Made by a program: the position numbers and the translations under genes
In this document: one piece after another, positions 1 through 6,492 of the stretch
How positions within the stretch are numbered: position 1 is the first letter of the stretch
How the letters are laid out: every line of letters starts with the position of its first letter
The notes under the pieces: model-generated
The model's input: the letters and a program-made list of their open reading frames with translations, nothing else
The model's database searches: none
What the model was told of the DNA's origin: nothing
Origin: a virus
Lineage: Duplodnaviria > Heunggongvirae > Uroviricota > Caudoviricetes
Direction: 5' to 3' (one strand)
DNA: 6,492 nt
IMG/VR virus record: IMGVR_UViG_2645727640_000047
Span: 1 to 6,492 of that record

Positions 1-35
1 CTGTTATAAATATCTTTTATATCAGTATATTATAG

Positions 36-204
36 GGTGAACAGTTATTTATGAACTGTTCACCAAACTATTCACTGTTCACCTTTTTGATTGTTTATTG
101 AGCTTCAAGGGTGAACAGTGGTGAACAGTTGGTGAATAGTTTTTGTGAAACTGTTCACCCCTTAACATTATGAATTAAAAGATAAAATATCAAAAGGTGA
201 ACAG
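36..204. repeat. Iteron cluster of a P4 alpha-type replication origin (ori/crr-like): octamer TGTTCACC in both orientations
   Basis: Seen in sequence: TGTTCACC at 57-64, 76-83 and 152-159; its reverse complement GGTGAACA at 36-43, 110-117, 120-127 and 196-203; one degenerate copy GGTGAATA at 131-138. An AT-rich stretch at 161-195 could be the unwinding element. Established knowledge: TGTTCACC is the type I iteron bound by the phage P4 alpha primase-helicase at ori and crr. Confidence 0.7.
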
Positions 205-301
205 GTGAAGGGTTAAAACGCAAAAATTTTAATTTACTGCTGTGAGATAAAGCCTATGACAGCGAAGCACATAAAAAAAATCACAATCGCACGCCCTTGA
301 T

Positions 302-502
302 TTGACGGAACACTGGTTAAGGGTGTCGATAAAAATCATCGACCGCAACGCCGGGGAAGGATATGCGAAAGCACATCCCGAACTGATTAGCGCATTCATG
401 ACAACGGCAGCTGCAAACTTTGCCACGCTGACAGAACGGGAGATTGCCGAAGCGGAACAGGTGACAACCATCAACGTTAAAACCGGAGAGCAGACAGCAT
501 GA
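302..502 (+). CDS. Hypothetical small protein; start uncertain (TTG 302, GTG 323 or ATG 398, all in frame)
   Basis: ORF in the track; its TGA stop (500-502) overlaps the ATG (499-501) of the next gene in an ATGA arrangement, suggesting translational coupling. No family recognised. The antisense ORF 229-474 is judged less likely because the plus-strand genes form a coupled operon. Confidence 0.35.
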   Translation: MTEHWLRVSIKIIDRNAGEGYAKAHPELISAFMTTAAANFATLTEREIAEAEQVTTINVKTGEQTA

Positions 503-921
503 CAGCACAGATAGCGGCTTACGGGCGGCTGGTGGCTGACCCGCAGTTAAAGACCACCAGCAAGGGTACACAAATGACGATGGCGAGTATGGCGGTCCCA
601 CTTCCGTGCAGCCAGGCAGATGACGGAACGGCGACGATGTGGTTATCCGTCCTGGCGTTTGGCAGACAGGCCGAAGCACTGGCAAAGCACCGCAAGGGTG
701 AACTCCTGAGCGTGGCGGGTAACATGCAGGTGAGCCAGTGGACCGGACAGAACGGGGAGACGCGGCAGGGCTGGCAGGTTATCGCAGACAGCGTAATCAG
801 TGCGAGAACGGCGCGACCGGGCGGCAAAAAAGGCCAACAGGGGCAGGCTACTGATGCACTGAGCAGAGCAAAACAACAGGCGGGAAATGATGATCCGTAC
901 GGGGATAACATACCGTTTTAA
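499..921 (+). CDS. ssb: Single-stranded DNA-binding protein (SSB family), 140 aa
   Basis: The translation has an OB-fold-like core (VLAFGRQAEALAKHRKGELLSVAGNMQVSQWTGQNGETR, compare E. coli SSB [39 protein letters not shown]), a Gly/Gln-rich linker and a C-terminal tip DDPYGDNIPF (compare E. coli SSB DFDDDIPF). A GGAGAG Shine-Dalgarno lies about 9 nt upstream, and a terminator follows. Confidence 0.75.
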   Translation: MTAQIAAYGRLVADPQLKTTSKGTQMTMASMAVPLPCSQADDGTATMWLSVLAFGRQAEALAKHRKGELLSVAGNMQVSQWTGQNGETRQGWQVIADSVISARTARPGGKKGQQGQATDALSRAKQQAGNDDPYGDNIPF

Positions 922-936
922 GCAACGAGTAACAGA

Positions 937-959
937 AGCCGGAGCAATCCGGCTTTTTT
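937..959 (+). terminator. Rho-independent terminator after the ssb-like gene
   Basis: Stem AGCCGGA (937-943), loop GCAA, stem TCCGGCT (948-954), followed by a T-run through 959; it sits 16 nt after the stop codon. Confidence 0.6.
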
Positions 960-977
960 ATGGGTCCTCCCGGTGTA

Positions 978-1186
978 GTGACCTGCCACGGGGCGGGAGC
1001 GGCGCGGAAAAAGGCTAGTTTTTGCATTTTCATTCGTCATCATCATCTTTCTATAATGTTGAATTTTAAGTGTTTTTATTTTTGGTATGTTAATTTTGCT
1101 TGTTTTGTGTTCAACATACAGCGCGTTTTTTGACCTTTTTTAAAAGATATTTGCAAGATGCATTTTTAAAACATTCTGGAGCGGGT
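978..1186 (+). promoter_or_regulatory. Candidate lambda-like cos region (cosN-like 988-1003, AT-rich cosB-like 1020-1180) upstream of the Nu1-like gene; contains a perfect TATAAT at 1052-1057
   Basis: ACGGGGCGG at 988-996 is identical to the 9-mer that, as recalled, spans the lambda cosN nick (right end ...TTACG joined to left end GGGCGGCGACCT). It lies about 196 nt upstream of the Nu1-like ATG at 1187; lambda Nu1 starts at nt 191. TCGTCAT and GTTTTTATTT motifs recalled from lambda cosB also occur (1034-1040, 1072-1081). The right half of the putative cosN differs from lambda (GAGCGG versus CGACCT). Confidence 0.4.
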
Positions 1187-1672
1187 ATGGATCGGGAACT
1201 GAAAAATCTGATGCTGAACATTAACCAGCTGGCGGCGATAGCGGGAATATGTCGCCAGACTGCGGCGGCAAGGCTGAAAAATATCCAGCCAGCCGGAGGA
1301 CATGACAAGCTGAAACTCTATCGGGTGACTGACATTCTGACTTGTTTTCTTGATCTTCCCGTTCCGGCATCACTGGAAGAAATGGAGCCACACGACCGTA
1401 AGGCCTGGTATCAGTCCGAACGTGAGCGCCTCAAGTTCGAACAGGAAACGGCGCAACTCATACCCGCCGATGATGTGCGAAAAGAGATGGCTATATGGGG
1501 AGAAATCGTAAGCGAGGAACTGGAAAAACTCCCCAGTATTCTGGCACGTGATGTTGGGCTTAAACCGATGGCAGTAAACAGAGTGCAGTCAATTATTGAC
1601 GATTTGTGTAATCAGATTATCAGCCGGATGGTAAAAAATGACGTAGTGAATGAGGTCGCAAAACAGGCATGA
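1187..1672 (+). CDS. Nu1-like terminase small subunit (N-terminal HTH), 161 aa; start set at the ATG with a GGAG Shine-Dalgarno rather than the track's TTG at 1100
   Basis: The N-terminal LNINQLAAIAGICRQTAAARLKNIQPA matches the lambda gpNu1 HTH pattern VNKKQLADIFGASIRTIQNWQEQGMPV (Q-L-A-x-I-x-G-...-T-...-P). The size is similar (161 versus 181 aa). A GGAG lies 8 nt upstream of ATG 1187. The gene sits downstream of the cos-like sequence as in lambdoid phages. Confidence 0.55.
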   Translation: MDRELKNLMLNINQLAAIAGICRQTAAARLKNIQPAGGHDKLKLYRVTDILTCFLDLPVPASLEEMEPHDRKAWYQSERERLKFEQETAQLIPADDVRKEMAIWGEIVSEELEKLPSILARDVGLKPMAVNRVQSIIDDLCNQIISRMVKNDVVNEVAKQA

Positions 1673-1956
1673 TAATGACCGAATCTGAAATACTGCGATT
1701 AATCCGCTGTGCTGGTGGAATTAGCCAGTTGGCTGACGAACAGGCCGCGCAGCCGGATACAGTCACCGCTGAAAATTACGCGCGTGTGGTGGCTGAGGTG
1801 ATGCGCCGTGACGGTATTGAGCTTAACGGCGTGGATATGCGCAACATACGAACCAGAGTCCTTGAGTTGCTGGCATACCGTCGCCGTTCTCAACAACGGA
1901 GGGAGAGCGCGAAAAATACTTATCAGTGGAAGAAGCCGGAATGGTTGCGGCGGTAA
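1669..1956 (+). CDS. Hypothetical 95-aa protein translationally coupled to the Nu1-like gene; weak resemblance to the N-terminal segment of lambda gpA (terminase large subunit)
   Basis: Its ATG (1669-1671) overlaps the upstream TGA (1670-1672). The N-terminus MIMTESEILRLIRCAGG...QPDTVTAENYA loosely parallels lambda gpA MNISNSQVNRLRHFVRAGL...PQTAVEWADANYY. It occupies the position that terL holds in lambdoid phages but is only 95 aa. Confidence 0.45.
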   Translation: MIMTESEILRLIRCAGGISQLADEQAAQPDTVTAENYARVVAEVMRRDGIELNGVDMRNIRTRVLELLAYRRRSQQRRESAKNTYQWKKPEWLRR

Positions 1957-2001
1957 TTTGTTGATATTCCTGATAGCGCAAAAGTGCGTTGGCTGGTGGG
2001 T

Positions 2002-2021
2002 GAGTTGCAGATCTGCAACTC
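2002..2021. repeat. Perfect 20-bp palindrome GAGTTGCAGATCTGCAACTC with a central GATC
   Basis: The reverse complement is identical to the forward sequence. It lies 46 bp after the stop of the last island ORF. Either a dimeric-protein operator/recognition site or a hairpin; the central GATC is a Dam site. Confidence 0.5.
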
Positions 2022-2040
2022 GACCATGAAATTACGGAAA

Positions 2041-2223
2041 CTACCCGTAGTTTGGGTAGTAAGAGTAACACCCAGATTTTGGGGCTTACTCGCGATACCC
2101 AAATAAAGGGTATCTGTGGAAGAAATATCGTTTCTCATATGTGAGTACCGAGGGCGGAATTCCGCCTTCGGTTACTTATTGTGCTCATGCACAGGGAGGG
2201 GCGGGTCAAATCCCTGTGACCTG
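2041..2223. other. Non-coding cluster of inverted repeats / hairpins at the right border of the inserted element
   Basis: CTACCC...GGGTAG (2041-2059); GATACCC-7nt-GGGTATC (2094-2114); perfect 14-bp palindrome GGCGGAATTCCGCC (2153-2166) extended by wobble to ACCGAG/TTCGGT (2147-2172); CACAGGGA-13nt-TCCCTGTG (2190-2218). Contains GGGGCGGG (2198-2205) and GTGACCTG (2216-2223), both also present at 978-997. No credible ORF. Confidence 0.45.
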
Positions 2224-2362
2224 ACGTCTTCCGGACTGCCAGCCCCATCGATTTTTTATACCCGCGAAAAATGAAAAACGCTTCACGCTGGTGGGCCTGA
2301 TGCCGATAACTGGTTTCATGACTGATAGCCGGAAAATGATAACGATTAAAGCGTGTTGATCT

Positions 2363-2419
2363 TTGTTCGTGGTTGTTCGATATTGTTCGTGGAACGGTGT
2401 AGTTAATGGTGTAGTTAAT
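2363..2419. repeat. Direct repeats: TTGTTCGTGG (2363-2372, 2383-2392; partial TTGTTCGA 2373-2380) and tandem GGTGTAGTTAAT (2396-2407, 2408-2419)
   Basis: Seen directly in sequence. The arrangement resembles arm-type recombinase or regulator binding sites next to an integration junction; the function is not established. Confidence 0.4.
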
Positions 2420-2592
2420 TTTACTGTTTTTGACGAGCTTATTGTTTGCAACTCAATGAAAAATAAAGGCTAATAAGCCAAATGCTATAAATGATAGTTA
2501 TCTATCATGTGGAGTAGATTGGTCAGGCAAATAAGCTCTTGTCAGCGGCAGGGCGTTCTGCCGATAACCGTAACCGAAGATGATAACTGACA

Positions 2593-2913
2593 ATGGGTAA
2601 AACGAACGACTGGCTGGACTTTGATCAACTGGCGGAAGAAAAAGTTCGCGACGCGCTAAAACCGCCATCTATGTATAAAGTGATATTAGTCAATGATGAT
2701 TACACTCCGATGGAGTTTGTTATTGACGTGTTACAAAAATTCTTTTCTTATGATGTAGAACGTGCAACGCAATTGATGCTCGCTGTTCACTACCAGGGGA
2801 AGGCCATTTGCGGAGTCTTTACCGCCGAGGTTGCAGAAACCAAAGTGGCGATGGTGAACAAGTACGCGAGGGAGAATGAGCATCCATTGCTGTGTACGCT
2901 AGAAAAAGCCTGA
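2593..2913 (+). CDS. clpS: ATP-dependent Clp protease adaptor ClpS, 106 aa
   Basis: The translation [51 protein letters not shown]... matches E. coli ClpS as recalled; there is a 30-bp gap to clpA, as in K-12. Confidence 0.96.
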
Positions 2914-2943
2914 ATGCAGGCATAAAAATTGGGGGAGGTGCCT

Positions 2944-5220
2944 ATGCTCAATCAAGAACTGGAACTCAGTTTAAATATGGCTTTCGCCAGAGCGCGCGAG
3001 CACCGTCATGAGTTTATGACCGTCGAGCACTTGTTACTGGCGCTGCTCAGTAACCCATCTGCCCGGGAGGCGCTGGAAGCGTGTTCTGTGGATTTGGTTG
3101 CGCTCCGTCAGGAACTGGAAGCCTTTATTGAACAAACCACACCCGTTCTGCCTGCCAGTGAAGAGGAGCGCGACACACAGCCGACGCTGAGTTTTCAGCG
3201 TGTACTGCAACGTGCGGTCTTCCATGTCCAATCCTCCGGTCGCAATGAGGTAACCGGTGCAAACGTTCTGGTCGCTATCTTTAGCGAACAGGAGTCGCAG
3301 GCGGCATATCTGTTGCGTAAACATGAAGTCAGCCGTCTCGATGTGGTGAACTTTATCTCTCATGGCACGCGTAAAGACGAGCCGACACAGTCTTCTGATC
3401 CTGGCAGCCAGCCAAACAGCGAAGAACAAGCTGGTGGGGAGGAACGTATGGAGAATTTCACGACGAACCTGAATCAGCTTGCGCGCGTGGGCGGAATCGA
3501 CCCACTGATTGGTCGTGAGAAGGAGCTGGAGCGTGCTATTCAGGTTCTCTGCCGTCGCCGTAAAAACAACCCGCTGCTGGTGGGGGAATCTGGTGTCGGT
3601 AAAACCGCGATTGCGGAAGGTCTTGCCTGGCGAATTGTTCAGGGCGATGTGCCGGAAGTGATGGCTGACTGTACGATTTACTCTCTCGATATCGGTTCTC
3701 TGTTAGCGGGCACTAAATATCGCGGCGACTTTGAAAAACGTTTTAAAGCGTTGCTCAAGCAGCTGGAGCAGGACACTAACAGCATCCTGTTTATTGATGA
3801 GATCCACACCATTATCGGTGCGGGGGCAGCGTCTGGTGGCCAGGTCGATGCGGCTAACCTGATCAAACCGTTGCTCTCCAGCGGTAAAATTCGCGTAATT
3901 GGTTCGACAACCTATCAGGAGTTCAGCAACATTTTCGAGAAAGACCGTGCTCTGGCGCGTCGCTTCCAGAAAATTGATATTACTGAACCGTCGATCGAAG
4001 AAACTGTTCAAATCATCAATGGCCTGAAACCGAAGTATGAAGCGCACCACGACGTGCGTTATACCGCAAAAGCGGTGCGTGCAGCGGTAGAGCTGGCGGT
4101 GAAATACATTAACGATCGTCATCTGCCGGATAAAGCCATTGACGTTATCGACGAAGCGGGCGCTCGCGCACGCCTGATGCCGGTAAGCAAACGCAAGAAA
4201 ACCGTTAATGTGGCGGATATTGAGTCCGTGGTGGCCCGTATTGCGCGCATTCCAGAGAAGAGTGTTTCTCAGAGTGACCGCGATACCCTGAAAAACCTCG
4301 GCGATCGCCTGAAAATGCTGGTCTTCGGTCAGGATAAAGCCATTGAGGCGCTGACTGAAGCCATTAAGATGGCGCGTGCAGGTTTAGGTCACGAACATAA
4401 ACCGGTTGGTTCGTTCCTGTTTGCCGGCCCTACCGGGGTCGGGAAAACAGAGGTGACGGTACAGCTTTCGAAAGCGTTGGGCATTGAGCTGCTGCGCTTT
4501 GATATGTCCGAGTATATGGAACGCCATACCGTCAGCCGTCTGATTGGTGCGCCTCCGGGATACGTTGGTTTTGATCAGGGAGGTTTGCTGACTGATGCGG
4601 TCATCAAGCATCCACATGCGGTGCTGTTGCTGGACGAAATCGAGAAAGCGCATCCGGACGTGTTCAATATTCTGTTGCAGGTGATGGACAACGGTACGCT
4701 GACCGATAACAACGGACGCAAAGCGGACTTCCGTAACGTGGTGCTGGTGATGACCACCAACGCCGGGGTACGTGAAACTGAGCGTAAATCCATTGGTCTT
4801 ATCCACCAGGATAACAGCACCGATGCGATGGAGGAGATCAAGAAGATCTTTACACCGGAATTCCGTAACCGTCTCGACAACATTATCTGGTTTGATCATC
4901 TGTCAACCGACGTGATCCATCAGGTGGTGGATAAATTCATCGTCGAGTTGCAGGTTCAGCTGGATCAGAAAGGTGTTTCTCTGGAAGTGAGCCAGGAAGC
5001 GCGTAACTGGCTGGCCGAGAAAGGTTACGACCGGGCAATGGGCGCACGTCCGATGGCGCGTGTCATCCAGGACAACCTGAAAAAACCGCTCGCCAACGAA
5101 CTGCTGTTTGGTTCGCTGGTGGACGGCGGTCAGGTCACCGTCGCGCTGGATAAAGAGAAAAATGAGCTGACTTACGGATTCCAGAGTGCACAAAAGCACA
5201 AGGCGGAAGCAGCGCATTAA
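2944..5220 (+). CDS. clpA: ATP-dependent Clp protease ATP-binding subunit ClpA, 758 aa
   Basis: The translation begins [35 protein letters not shown] and has two AAA+ modules with Walker A motifs ([16 protein letters not shown]). A strong Shine-Dalgarno GGGGGAGG (2931-2938) lies 5 nt before ATG 2944; the track's TTG start at 2929 is not used. Confidence 0.96.
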
Positions 5221-5244
5221 TCTGATTGTTAGGTAGGTTGGTCA

Positions 5245-5280
5245 AGTCCGTAATCTCGAAAGAGGTTACGGACTTTTTGT
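5245..5280 (+). terminator. Rho-independent terminator of clpA (about 13-bp stem, GAAA tetraloop, T-run)
   Basis: AGTCCGTAATCTC (5245-5257), loop GAAA (5258-5261), GAGGTTACGGACT (5262-5274) with one G-U wobble, then TTTTTGTTT. Confidence 0.8.
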
Positions 5281-5432
5281 TTATGGGGTGGAGGAGGTTC
5301 AGACCCTTTTTTTAATGATGATGGTAAGTTGTTGATAATTAGTGCTGCGGGAAGGTAAGGATAAAAAAGGGTGCTGCAGGAGAATGGGATGGTTTTGCTT
5401 TATTAACAACGGGCTAAACGTGTAGTATTTGA

Positions 5433-5520
5433 GTTCACTGCCATACAGGCAGCTTAGAAATCGACGGGGTGCGGTAAAACCTTTGCGAACGCGTTCACTG
5501 CCGTACAGACAGATAAAATG
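5433..5520 (+). CRISPR. Orphan type I-F CRISPR mini-array: 2 repeats, 1 spacer, no cas genes in the window
   Basis: Repeat 1 GTTCACTGCCATACAGGCAGCTTAGAAA (5433-5460); 32-bp spacer TCGACGGGGTGCGGTAAAACCTTTGCGAACGC (5461-5492); degenerate terminal repeat GTTCACTGCCGTACAGACAGATAAAATG (5493-5520). The repeat matches the 28-bp Ypest/I-F consensus GTTCACTGCCGTACAGGCAGCTTAGAAA with one mismatch. An AT-rich leader-like region lies at 5290-5432. The clpA-infA position is the known E. coli CRISPR3/4 (I-F) locus. Confidence 0.85.
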
Positions 5521-5522
5521 CG

Positions 5523-5550
5523 AAAAAAAAGCTCGCACTTTCGTACGAGC
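5523..5550 (-). terminator. Rho-independent terminator of serW (8-bp stem, GAAA tetraloop, U8)
   Basis: On the minus strand the RNA reads GCUCGUAC-GAAA-GUGCGAGC followed by UUUUUUUU; it lies 14 nt downstream of the tRNA 3' end. Confidence 0.8.
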
Positions 5551-5563
5551 TCTTCTTTAAATA

Positions 5564-5651
5564 TGGCGGTGAGGGGGGGATTCGAACCCCCGATACGTTG
5601 CCGTATACACACTTTCCAGGCGTGCTCCTTCAGCCACTCGGACACCTCACC
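5564..5651 (-). tRNA. serW: tRNA-Ser (anticodon GGA), 88 nt including the encoded CCA
   Basis: The reverse complement reads GGTGAGGTGTCCGAGTGGCTGAAGGAGCACGCCTGGAAAGTGTGTATACGGCAACGTATCGGGGGTTCGAATCCCCCCCTCACCGCCA, with the anticodon loop CUGGAAA, a long variable arm and the T-loop GGTTCGAATCC. Confidence 0.95.
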
Positions 5652-5693
5652 AAATTGTTTTGTCGCCTGACCTCATGGGTGGCAACGGGGCGC

Positions 5694-5722
5694 TACTATA
5701 GGGAGTTGGAGTAAAACGGTCA
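5694..5722 (-). promoter_or_regulatory. Candidate sigma-70 promoter of serW (-35 TTGACC, 17-bp spacer, -10 TATAGT, GC-rich discriminator)
   Basis: On the minus strand: TTGACC (plus 5717-5722), 17 bp, TATAGT (plus 5694-5699), followed by AGCGCCCC, as is typical of stringently controlled tRNA promoters; about 40 nt upstream of the mature tRNA 5' end. Confidence 0.5.
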
Positions 5723-5840
5723 AGAAGAATTTTAATGATAATTATTGTTTGCTCATACTGTAAACAAGTTGTGCAGTATATCTACATCGAGACAAGTTAC
5801 GGACTTATACTTCCAAAGTACTTCATACATATCACAAAAT

Positions 5841-5862
5841 AAAAAGGCCGGTTAAACCGACC
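5841..5862 (-). terminator. Rho-independent terminator of infA
   Basis: On the minus strand the hairpin GGUCGG-UUUAA-CCGGCC (plus 5846-5862) is followed by a U-run (plus 5841-5845); it lies about 40 nt downstream of the infA stop codon. Confidence 0.6.
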
Positions 5863-5904
5863 TTTTACTCGTTCTTTCTCTTCGCCCATCAGGCGGTAAA
5901 ACAA

Positions 5905-6126
<222 letters not shown>

Positions 6127-6492
6127 ATCCTCTGGGGTATCACTACCGTAATTTGAACCGGCAAGATAATGCCGAAGTTCTGTAAATAAGTAAAGATTTG
6201 CGCGCTAAATCGCAACAAACAGGTTCGGCACATTACTCCGAAAACACACGGCTAAGCCGCACCAAAAGCGCAACGTATAAGGGAGCGGTGAGATAAACGA
6301 TGGGCGTTACCTGACGCGAAAAATTCCTTATCGGCAGCGGGGTAATGAGCGTAACCAACTCTGCGACCGCAATTATAACACTCTGGGGAGAAATGTGCCG
6401 AAAACATTCATTCTTGTGGTGAAAACAAGGGAAGGTGCGAATAAGCGGGGAAATACTTCTCGGCTGACTCAGTCATTTCATTTCTTCATGTT

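Follow-up and report, generated by a model that had tools for sequence, protein, structure and literature searches.

The right end of a satellite element of the phage-inducible chromosomal island (PICI) type carries a perfect 20-bp palindrome that recurs inside or upstream of KilA-N genes of temperate phages, and the island itself encodes no KilA-N domain. The element lies in positions 1 to 6,492 of the IMG/VR virus record IMGVR_UViG_2645727640_000047 (hereafter the window, i.e., the whole stretch of 6,492 nucleotides), which comprises the E. coli region clpS-clpA-tRNA-Ser-infA and, before it, the right part of a satellite of ~8 kb. The link to KilA-N genes is unexpected. Our tentative reading, to which we give a little less than an even chance, is that the palindrome represents a captured phage cis-element that would be recognised by a helper-encoded factor, most simply a KilA-N protein.

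The palindrome (GAGTTGCAGATCTGCAACTC, with the core CAGATCTG) is self-complementary at 20 of its 20 positions and has GATC at its centre, exactly as a sequence-only reading of this stretch had described it. It follows directly on the last island gene, as had also been noted, with the stop codon of ORF93 45 nt upstream, and belongs to a non-coding right end of 440 bp. No longer perfect palindrome exists in the window, the runner-up being the 14-bp GGCGGAATTCCGCC at 2153-2166. The naive expectation for 20 bp is 0.006 per window, and this length was reached in 2 of 300 mononucleotide shuffles, so that the earlier judgement of a sequence unlikely by chance is borne out; together with the conservation described below, this discards chance as an explanation. 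Beyond the 20 bp the arms continue to pair outward, yet imperfectly. Neither a second copy nor half-sites, for which the sequence-only reading had proposed to search, occur within the 8-kb island. The features needed here are:

2002-2021 (no strand assigned): perfect 20-bp palindrome, the E. coli allele of the KilA-N-associated palindrome.
1996-2027 (no strand assigned): extended inverted repeat, GTGG at 1996-1999 opposite CCAT at 2024-2027, with a fold of -18.4 kcal/mol (z -4.0).
1675-1956 (+ strand): ORF93, the last island ORF (93 aa, phrog_1561) and constant upstream neighbour of the palindrome region.
1997-2125 (+ strand): satellite-specific non-coding module of 129 nt (~125 nt) with the palindrome at its 5' end, never annotated.

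A palindrome-centred search of the phage collection returned matches inside genes with a KilA-N domain; exact phage matches were confined to KilA-N surroundings. Gene 46 of phage SfII (SfII_46), situated in the nin region just upstream of Q, carries GAGTTGCAGATTTGCAACTC on its sense strand at codons 52-58 (ELQICNS), which is identical in 20 of 20 positions to the GATT variant of the satellite palindrome. The same 20/20 match is found in the homologues of Stx2a phages, 2H10, Kati and 569R4, and all of the ~160 IMG/VR gene copies examined read GAG TTG CAG ATT TGC AAC TCG. The 5' part of this gene is present in 2135 of 5426 E. coli genomes. A single base separates the window palindrome from the SfII/Stx allele, and the homology of the window to the phage gene is limited to ~20-30 nt. 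Moreover, three divergent KilA-N lineages have a palindrome at the same codons. The L377 gene contains the exact 20-mer of the window within a perfect palindrome of 22 bp (TELQICNSP), and the gene of Pasteurella phage Pmp14, with 52% amino acid identity, reads AAG TTG CAG ATC TGC AAC TCG. L501/L502 read AAA GTA CAG ATC TGT ACT TTG, again a perfect palindrome of 22 bp; here both arms are changed and the protein sequence followed (KVQICTL). Within these genes, other protein-conserved blocks vary freely at synonymous sites (Leu as CTG, CTT or TTA; Lys as AAG or AAA), whereas the palindrome codons are frozen as TTG, CAG, TGC, AAC and TCG, even against the AT bias of the Pasteurellaceae. Thus, the constraint acts on the nucleic acid and not on the protein. 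The KilA-N protein itself found no homologue in the PDB.

The palindrome also occurs in front of KilA-N genes. Besides the PICI modules and the common KilA-N gene of E. coli lambdoid phages, an 18-mer scan of IMG/VR yielded seven contexts, six of which are linked to KilA-N. In three of these lineages (L367, L409/L433 and L406/L420) the palindrome precedes the KilA-N gene by 132-150 nt; the upstream-type genes tested against Pfam matched KilA-N with E-values of 4e-20 (L367) and 2e-17 (L409), and the L406 gene was called KilA-N from its N-terminal sequence only. Among 45 KilA-N loci of the Pasteurellaceae type, 19 have TGCAGATCTGCA at a distance of 139-168 nt before the ATG. In 14 of the other 26 there is another palindrome, likewise perfect and 20-24 bp long except for one of 12 bp; most of these occupy the same position, and most follow the pattern AAAT-NNNN-CAGATCTG-NNNN-ATTT. 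The remaining 12 of the 45 have no perfect palindrome of at least 12 bp. A version with GTGAGAATTCTCAC was seen in three Pasteurellaceae-type loci, and the upstream palindrome of L501/L502 lies ~390 nt from the KilA-N gene. Altogether, the upstream palindromes comprise at least 10 arm variants, all perfectly covarying.

The KilA-N-associated palindrome is a family delineated in the present analysis and not a curated one. Its members have a CAGAT(C/T)TG centre in a perfect or near-perfect palindrome of at least 18 bp, are placed either within a KilA-N gene (codons ~52-58) or 130-170 nt before it, and keep their symmetry through compensated changes. The window element has this centre and length, and symmetry is kept in the phage arm variants, in the arms of L501 and at the centre of the L004 satellite lineage (see below); it does, however, not lie inside or upstream of a KilA-N gene. 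As the island has no such gene and the palindrome is non-coding, we regard it as a gene-less copy rather than a canonical member of the family.

In the satellites that have the module the palindrome is conserved. Of 5426 complete E. coli genomes, 706 contain the 129-nt module, usually as a single copy, and a further 88 copies were found in IMG/VR and 75 in metagenomes; every one of them contains the palindrome, which answers the earlier question of conservation in related elements. The module lies 3' of an ORF93 homologue in satellites of the DUF1441 type, in a capsid-forming PICI (P27-TerS/TerL/HNH), and in satellites of the Rpp and the helper-embedded types. Three variants of its centre occur:

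Centre GATC (GAGTTGCAGATCTGCAACTC): 66 of 88 IMG/VR copies and 49 of 75 metagenome copies.
Centre GATT (GAGTTGCAGATTTGCAACTC): 10 of 88 IMG/VR copies and 20 of 75 metagenome copies, one of the latter with an additional arm change.
Centre AATT (GAATTGCAAATTTGCAACTC): 12 of 88 IMG/VR copies and 6 of 75 metagenome copies.

A metagenome scan for more divergent satellite copies returned the same three variants only. In the L004 lineage the change from GATC to AATT is a symmetric double change, and the outer stem pair (alignment columns 10/37) has changed from G-C to A-T; the GATT centre and one A.C mismatch are tolerated among satellite copies. Centres other than GATC account for 22 of 88 IMG/VR and 26 of 75 metagenome copies (25-35%), and GATC is found in none of the ~160 E. 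coli phage gene copies, all of which have GATT. Since natural copies carry GATT or AATT, Dam methylation is not essential, and we rejected a Dam-regulated site and with it the Dam-sensitive binding that had been proposed from the central GATC.

KilA-N is a predicted DNA-binding domain, which makes a KilA-N protein the prime candidate for the binder. In the reading we favour, a phage palindromic cis-element tied to KilA-N genes (Bro-network, antirepressor-like) would have been captured by the satellite without the gene. The helper or a resident prophage would supply a trans-acting factor for which the satellite's two-fold symmetric sequence is the recognition site. Most simply, this factor would be the DNA-binding KilA-N protein in dimeric form, and its substrate might be a hairpin or cruciform extruded from the DNA. 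Such recognition might couple the satellite to the delayed-early regulatory state of the helper, with the palindrome as a sensor, a decoy or a regulator. The active form may be duplex DNA, a cruciform or RNA, and a consequence may be felt by the satellite or the helper. SfII has both the GATT allele of the palindrome and the homologue of a cos region (cos2, below) that lies 215 bp from the satellite copy. Because the palindrome is conserved and its two-fold symmetry maintained (the AATT change and the compensated phage arms), it is reasonable to see in it a site for a symmetric, dimeric factor, which is the interpretation we prefer. This much of the earlier proposal of a dimeric-protein site stands, while no plausible partner is encoded by the island.

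Several observations weigh against this reading. To begin with, that the binder would be a KilA-N protein is what we infer from its predicted domain. The arm sequences are independent of KilA-N protein similarity, as divergent proteins go with GTTG arms and close relatives differ; this argues for a readout of structure plus conserved centre over one of specific arms, which would suit an RNA or single-stranded DNA hairpin equally well. An asymmetric GATT centre is tolerated. The sole precedent is the Roi protein of phage HK022, which reportedly binds a site within its own gene (work by Clerget and Boccard from 1996), and the HK022 roi gene contains no copy of the palindrome. Sister satellites such as EcCICFT073 lack the palindrome and have unrelated hairpins at the same position, and the satellite module beyond the palindrome has no phage counterpart, the palindrome alone recurring in the phage collection. 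Finally, an RNA of the sRNA-Xcc1 family lies 5-12 nt 3' of the Pasteurellaceae-phage palindrome and precedes the KilA-N gene, so that the role of the palindrome in phages may be promoter- or RNA-related. Matches to this family (RF02221) above the Rfam gathering score were obtained at L454 676-761, L281 1217-1300 and L501 671-757 and 443-526, and none at the E. coli KilA-N loci or in the window. sRNA-Xcc1 is associated with Bro-network genes in APSE phages (bioRxiv 10.1101/2020.03.17.996009), and it seems to be a leader of such genes rather than a free-standing sRNA.

A more far-reaching version, which we hold to be possible but doubtful, is that NNNN-CAGATCTG-NNNN palindromes are the cognate target of KilA-N proteins, as operator, cruciform or hairpin, in temperate phages of Enterobacteriaceae and Pasteurellaceae, that they would matter enough to be written through the reading frame of the protein itself, and that the satellite copy would sense or titrate the KilA-N protein of the helper. 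KilA-N/Bro-network proteins are very common in phages and satellites and, to our knowledge, their DNA or RNA targets are mostly not established. A palindrome that lies inside or upstream of KilA-N genes across families, and to which the protein sequence yields, offers a concrete candidate for such a target. The searchable literature, which is incomplete, contained no description of a KilA-N-associated palindrome and nothing on this sequence, on KilA-N operators or on sRNAs in PICIs. If true, the far-reaching version would describe a form of cross-talk between helper and satellite that differs from cos mimicry and from Rpp/TerS hijacking; a copied cis-element of a helper regulatory gene would be a second route of PICIs into helper biology, beyond packaging signals.

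The alternatives turn largely on the folding and the composition of the right end, which contains these further features:

1974-1991 (+ strand): 'cassette-end' unit hairpin GCGCAAAAGTGCGT after the leader TAAtttGTTGATATTCC, with compensated stems in orthologous units.
1992-1999 (+ strand): exact Chi octamer GCTGGTGG, 2 nt upstream of the palindrome.
2042-2058 and 2096-2112 (no strand assigned): two TACCC-N7-GGGTA inverted repeats, which double as the arms of a single long, imperfect hairpin with its centre at ~2078.
2147-2172 (+ strand): terminator-like GC-rich hairpin with a T-rich tail (-26.8 kcal/mol), between the module and cos2.
2287-2294 (+ strand): second Chi octamer of the non-coding right end, 41 nt right of cosN.

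We consider it unlikely that the palindrome is an RNA structural element in the 3' untranslated region of terS-ORF93, i.e., an exonuclease barrier, a processing site or a definition of the transcript end, with the KilA-N match reflecting ancestry without a common factor. In this reading it would be transcribed and would form the first in a series of stem-loops, the last of which is the GC-rich hairpin at 2147-2172. The palindrome is co-oriented with the operon and lies between its stop codon and the terminator-like hairpin at 2147-2172; the + strand of 1957-2182 folds at -96 kcal/mol (z -7.5), neighbouring unit hairpins change in sequence and keep their pairing (GCGC/GCGC, GTGC/GCAC and GCCC/GGGT stems in orthologous units), and sister elements have other hairpins at this position. 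Compensation is likewise seen in one natural variant of the TACCC-N7-GGGTA repeats (GATCCCC...GGGGATC), which lie 54 bp apart in the module and can also pair with each other as one hairpin of ~80 nt (-35.6 kcal/mol, z -5.2), and in one change from A-T to C-G at alignment columns 109/123. However, both strands of the right end fold far better than shuffles, the minus strand equally well, covariation in the module does not exceed that of shuffled controls (alifold covariation term -0.16), and departures from pairing (G.U as against A.C) are not biased to either strand. The palindrome lacks a U-tract behind it, and the bias of right-end inverted repeats to 0-2 unpaired central bases is not needed by RNA loops, which would predict 3-6. 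Nor would an element of the transcript end explain the same palindrome inside or upstream of phage KilA-N genes. An RNA might instead act in trans: as the sequence is self-complementary, the satellite transcript could pair over 18-20 nt with the helper KilA-N mRNA for an antisense-like control, e.g. by RNase III cleavage. The 20/20 identity to the helper gene segment, the structured sRNA-Xcc1 adjoining the palindrome in other phages, and the known regulatory RNAs embedded in Bro-network genes, P4 CI/seqA and P1 c4 (PMC10111431), fit such pairing. We nevertheless find it improbable, as intramolecular hairpins would compete strongly with intermolecular pairing, transcription of the region is only assumed, and the palindromes that lie upstream of the gene in some lineages, outside the coding mRNA, would stay unexplained.

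We give little credence to a cruciform or hairpin that, placed by Chi near a cos-cut end, would modulate RecBCD or serve as a hotspot of cassette exchange. Its attraction lies in the exact Chi 2 nt upstream, in a different 22-bp palindrome of L032/L057 that is likewise preceded by an exact Chi, and in the ~80-fold enrichment of Chi in the non-coding right ends of these satellites; near-perfect palindromes are also in strong excess, inverted repeats being ~10-fold enriched in 25 non-redundant satellite right ends, and the content 3' of ORF93 is mosaic and cassette-like. Against this, several palindrome lineages have no Chi at this place (the L002 type; the L015 and L004 types keep 7 of its 8 bases), the KilA-N linkage is left without explanation, and we know of no mechanism linking short palindromes to Chi function. 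There is also only a slim chance that the palindrome is a functionless relic of a KilA-N gene left by recombination. PICIs have dynamic Bro-network zones and capture helper DNA (PMC10111431), and the window reads LVGELQICNST in frame against LISELQICNSV of the phage. Yet the homology extends over ~20-30 nt only, the palindrome is intact in all ~160 satellite copies of two independent collections, where neutral DNA would decay, and most satellites are perfected to GATC, compared with GATT in the phage gene, within a conserved 125-nt module. Highly improbable, in our view, is an operator sensitive to Dam and bound by a dimeric protein of the island (repressor, excisionase or terminase), to which perfect dyad symmetry and the central GATC had pointed: the site is single in the 8-kb island and without half-sites, GATC is lost in a quarter to a third of the copies, ORF93 does not co-vary with it, no sigma-70-like promoter accompanies it, cos and att functions lie elsewhere, and the element is common to satellites whose packaging modules are unrelated (the DUF1441, Rpp, P27-TerS/TerL and helper-embedded types).

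Other assignments of the region were rejected as well. The palindrome stem is followed by GACCATGAAATTACGG and thus lacks the immediate U-tract that, together with a GC-rich stem-loop, defines an intrinsic (Rho-independent) terminator; the only terminator-like call of the scan is 2147-2172, which disposes of the transcription-blocking hairpin suggested earlier. Overlapping ORFs, including a small one from the ATG at 2026, vary in length between relatives and have no family matches. The spacing of a sigma-54 promoter (TGG-N8-TTGCA) differs among variants on sequence inspection, and a scan of the + strand of 900-2600 gave no sigma-70-like promoter; a weak one, TTGCAG-17-GAAA(T/C)T, is possible. 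Covariance models of Rfam 15 run against 900-2600 gave spurious matches only (E >0.6).

Side observations concern the Chi sites, palindromes and repeat units of satellite right ends. In the window, Chi is found at 528, 554 (minus strand), 1711, 1992, 2287, 3430, 3576 and 5115, i.e., eight sites, seven of them on the + strand, compared with 0.19 expected from shuffles; the 8-kb island (L001 8436-16430) has seven on the + and three on the minus strand. The + orientation of Chi is the active one for RecBCD entering at the cos-cut right end. In 26 non-redundant satellite right ends (17.7 kb) we counted 22 Chi sites per strand versus 0.27 expected. Right ends (e.g. L032 97-118, L003 390-409, L086 324-339 and L073) also contain many different perfect palindromes of 14-26 bp, including CAGAATGTAAATTTACATTCTG, GTAGTTAACATGTTAACTAC, TATGGGGATCCCCATA and CCCGATATGGTGATCACCATATCGGG. 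Arrays of diverged units occur 3' of ORF93 and of other small genes (window 1950-2000, L002 8750-9005, L086 3641-3900 and L098, reverse complement, 1500-1890). Each unit consists of a stop codon and the leader TAAC(T/C)nGTTGATATT, followed by a short, variable and compensated hairpin (GCGCAAAATTGCGC, GTGCAAAAATGCAC, GCCCAAAAATGGGT, TCCCCCATTGGGGGA); their number differs between elements, and the units look like cassette-end sequences.

The island has the following packaging and attachment features:

~962-1186 (+ strand): cos1, a cos/cosB region of the mEp460/PhiR55_1 type, assigned by homology, directly upstream of the DUF1441 terS homologue.
1187-1672 (+ strand): small-terminase homologue (DUF1441, phrog_141) with its own cos directly upstream.
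2186-2283 (+ strand): cos2, a copy of the HNH-terS intergenic cos region of SfII/SfV/phiP27-type phages, with cosN at ~2237-2246 (TGCCAGCCCC).
2396-2422 (no strand assigned): att-proximal repeat GGTGTAGTTAATGGTGTAGTTAATTTT at the right end of the island, sharing 18 nt with attL (L001).

The homology of cos1 is to the region immediately 5' of the DUF1441-type terS of these phages and amounts to 77% identity with E-values of 1e-39 to 1e-42, the left end of mEp460 aligning from window position 986. In turn, cos2 matches the whole HNH-terS intergenic region of phages of the SfII/SfV/SfI/ST64B/phiP27 type, with 95% identity to SfII; these phages have a Terminase_4 TerS plus HNH, and the 10-nt cos site, as annotated in phiP27, corresponds to window 2237-2246. 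A lambda-type cosN is not present in the window. The island thus carries cos regions from two unrelated packaging families (mEp460/PhiR55_1 and the HNH-dependent SfII/SfV/phiP27), which suggests that it is mobilisable by two helper families. With two cos types, Chi sites and the palindrome, the 440-bp region shows a compact stacking of helper-directed signals. The palindrome itself was rejected as a cos site, as it lies outside both cos regions, ~215 bp upstream of cosN2 and beyond the GC-rich hairpin, and it is also found in satellites whose cos is 2.6 kb distant (L002). The DUF1441 TerS is served by a phage-like cos of its own further upstream, so that the palindrome is not the cosB of this protein. 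The att-proximal repeat is preceded by three arm-type repeats (TTGTTCG, 2362-2392), and the island ends at ~2395-2422. An att arm or core was rejected for the palindrome, which is ~375-390 bp away from the att repeat, well beyond the ~150 bp from the crossover within which such a site would be expected, and common to satellites with different integration sites. With both cos sites and the att arm repeats located elsewhere, the terminase, excisionase or recombinase site of the sequence-only reading is unlikely. The att-proximal sequence GGTGTAGTTAATGGTGTAGT(T/C)AATTT is found at window 2396-2422 (clpS insertion) and at L086 4104-4130 (EcCICFT073, phoQ insertion). As it is common to clpS and phoQ islands, it is island DNA and probably represents integrase binding repeats, not the crossover core.

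The satellite sits between cspD/yljB and clpS. In NZ_AP027844, which has the element in full, the order is integrase, AlpA, Icd-like protein, DUF4222, P4-alpha-like primase, iteron origin, SSB, DUF1441 and the 93-aa ORF. The iteron origin corresponds to window 1-230, where multiple GGTGAACAG / CTGTTCACC repeats directly 3' of the primase gene represent P4-type TGTTCACC iterons and presumably form the satellite origin. A strong intrinsic terminator (AGCCGGAGCAATCCGGCTTTTTT) at 936-958 lies 3' of ssb and just 5' of cos1; the terS-ORF93 unit behind it therefore needs its own promoter or antitermination. The DUF1441 protein gave no match to RppC in the PDB, and we rejected an Rpp-type system, as this protein is unlike RppC and is a TerS homologue with its own phage-like cosB upstream. 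ORF93 is present in satellites of all packaging types, has no Pfam family and no similarity to the N-terminus of TerL, and its AlphaFold model is helical and of low confidence (pLDDT 65). Its C-terminal variants are independent of the presence of the palindrome, for which reason it was rejected as a partner of the latter. The C-terminus of ORF93 is an arginine-rich helix (YRRRSQQRRESAKNTYQWKK) loosely resembling the arginine-rich motif (ARM) of lambda N, and nearby unit hairpins have A-rich, boxB-like loops; a likeness to the lambda N ARM-boxB pair is pure speculation. The satellite of L004 (9292-10053 plus flanks) is embedded in a helper and interrupts the major capsid gene of the prophage. 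Its accessory defence cargo at the right end comprises a gene for abortive infection, placed between the palindrome module and attR, and a gene with a TIR domain close to int.

Several known systems invite comparison with the palindrome. Like Rho-independent terminators and REP-type 3' stem-loops, it places a stable predicted stem-loop (8+4 bp, -18.4 kcal/mol) after the last gene of an operon, among other hairpins; in contrast to them, it has no U-tract, is palindromic through the would-be loop and also occupies coding and promoter-proximal positions in phages. Dam-controlled sites such as P1 pac, the pap GATC sites and IS10 share a symmetric GATC, but that of the palindrome is single and not conserved. 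The site reported for HK022 Roi is likewise embedded in coding DNA, that of an Ant/KilA-related gene which belongs to the nin region and immediately precedes Q. The N-terminus of Roi is of the Rha type rather than KilA-N, and the present element is a gene-less satellite copy. Regulatory RNAs of the Bro network (P4 CI/seqA, P1 c4, IsrK and the sRNA-Xcc1 leaders) are also nucleic-acid elements that overlap or abut KilA-N/Bro genes, and the palindrome appears to resemble such embedded elements as well; the window, however, has no Rfam match, and the palindrome lies outside the sRNA-Xcc1 model. By analogy, it is most like the mimicry of helper cis-acting sites by satellites, known for cos in P4, SaPIbov5 and EcCICFT073 (PMC6092414, PMC6739421) and for the PICI cosB recognised by Rpp-TerS (PMC6739421). 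In such mimicry, helper proteins act on the copy or variant that the satellite carries, and the present island copies two helper cos sites as well. The palindrome differs from cos mimicry in that it lies outside both cos regions and has its homologue in a regulatory gene of the helper rather than in a packaging signal. The mechanism put forward in the sequence-only reading is only partly right, and the palindrome is best seen as a case of cis-element sharing between satellite and helper.

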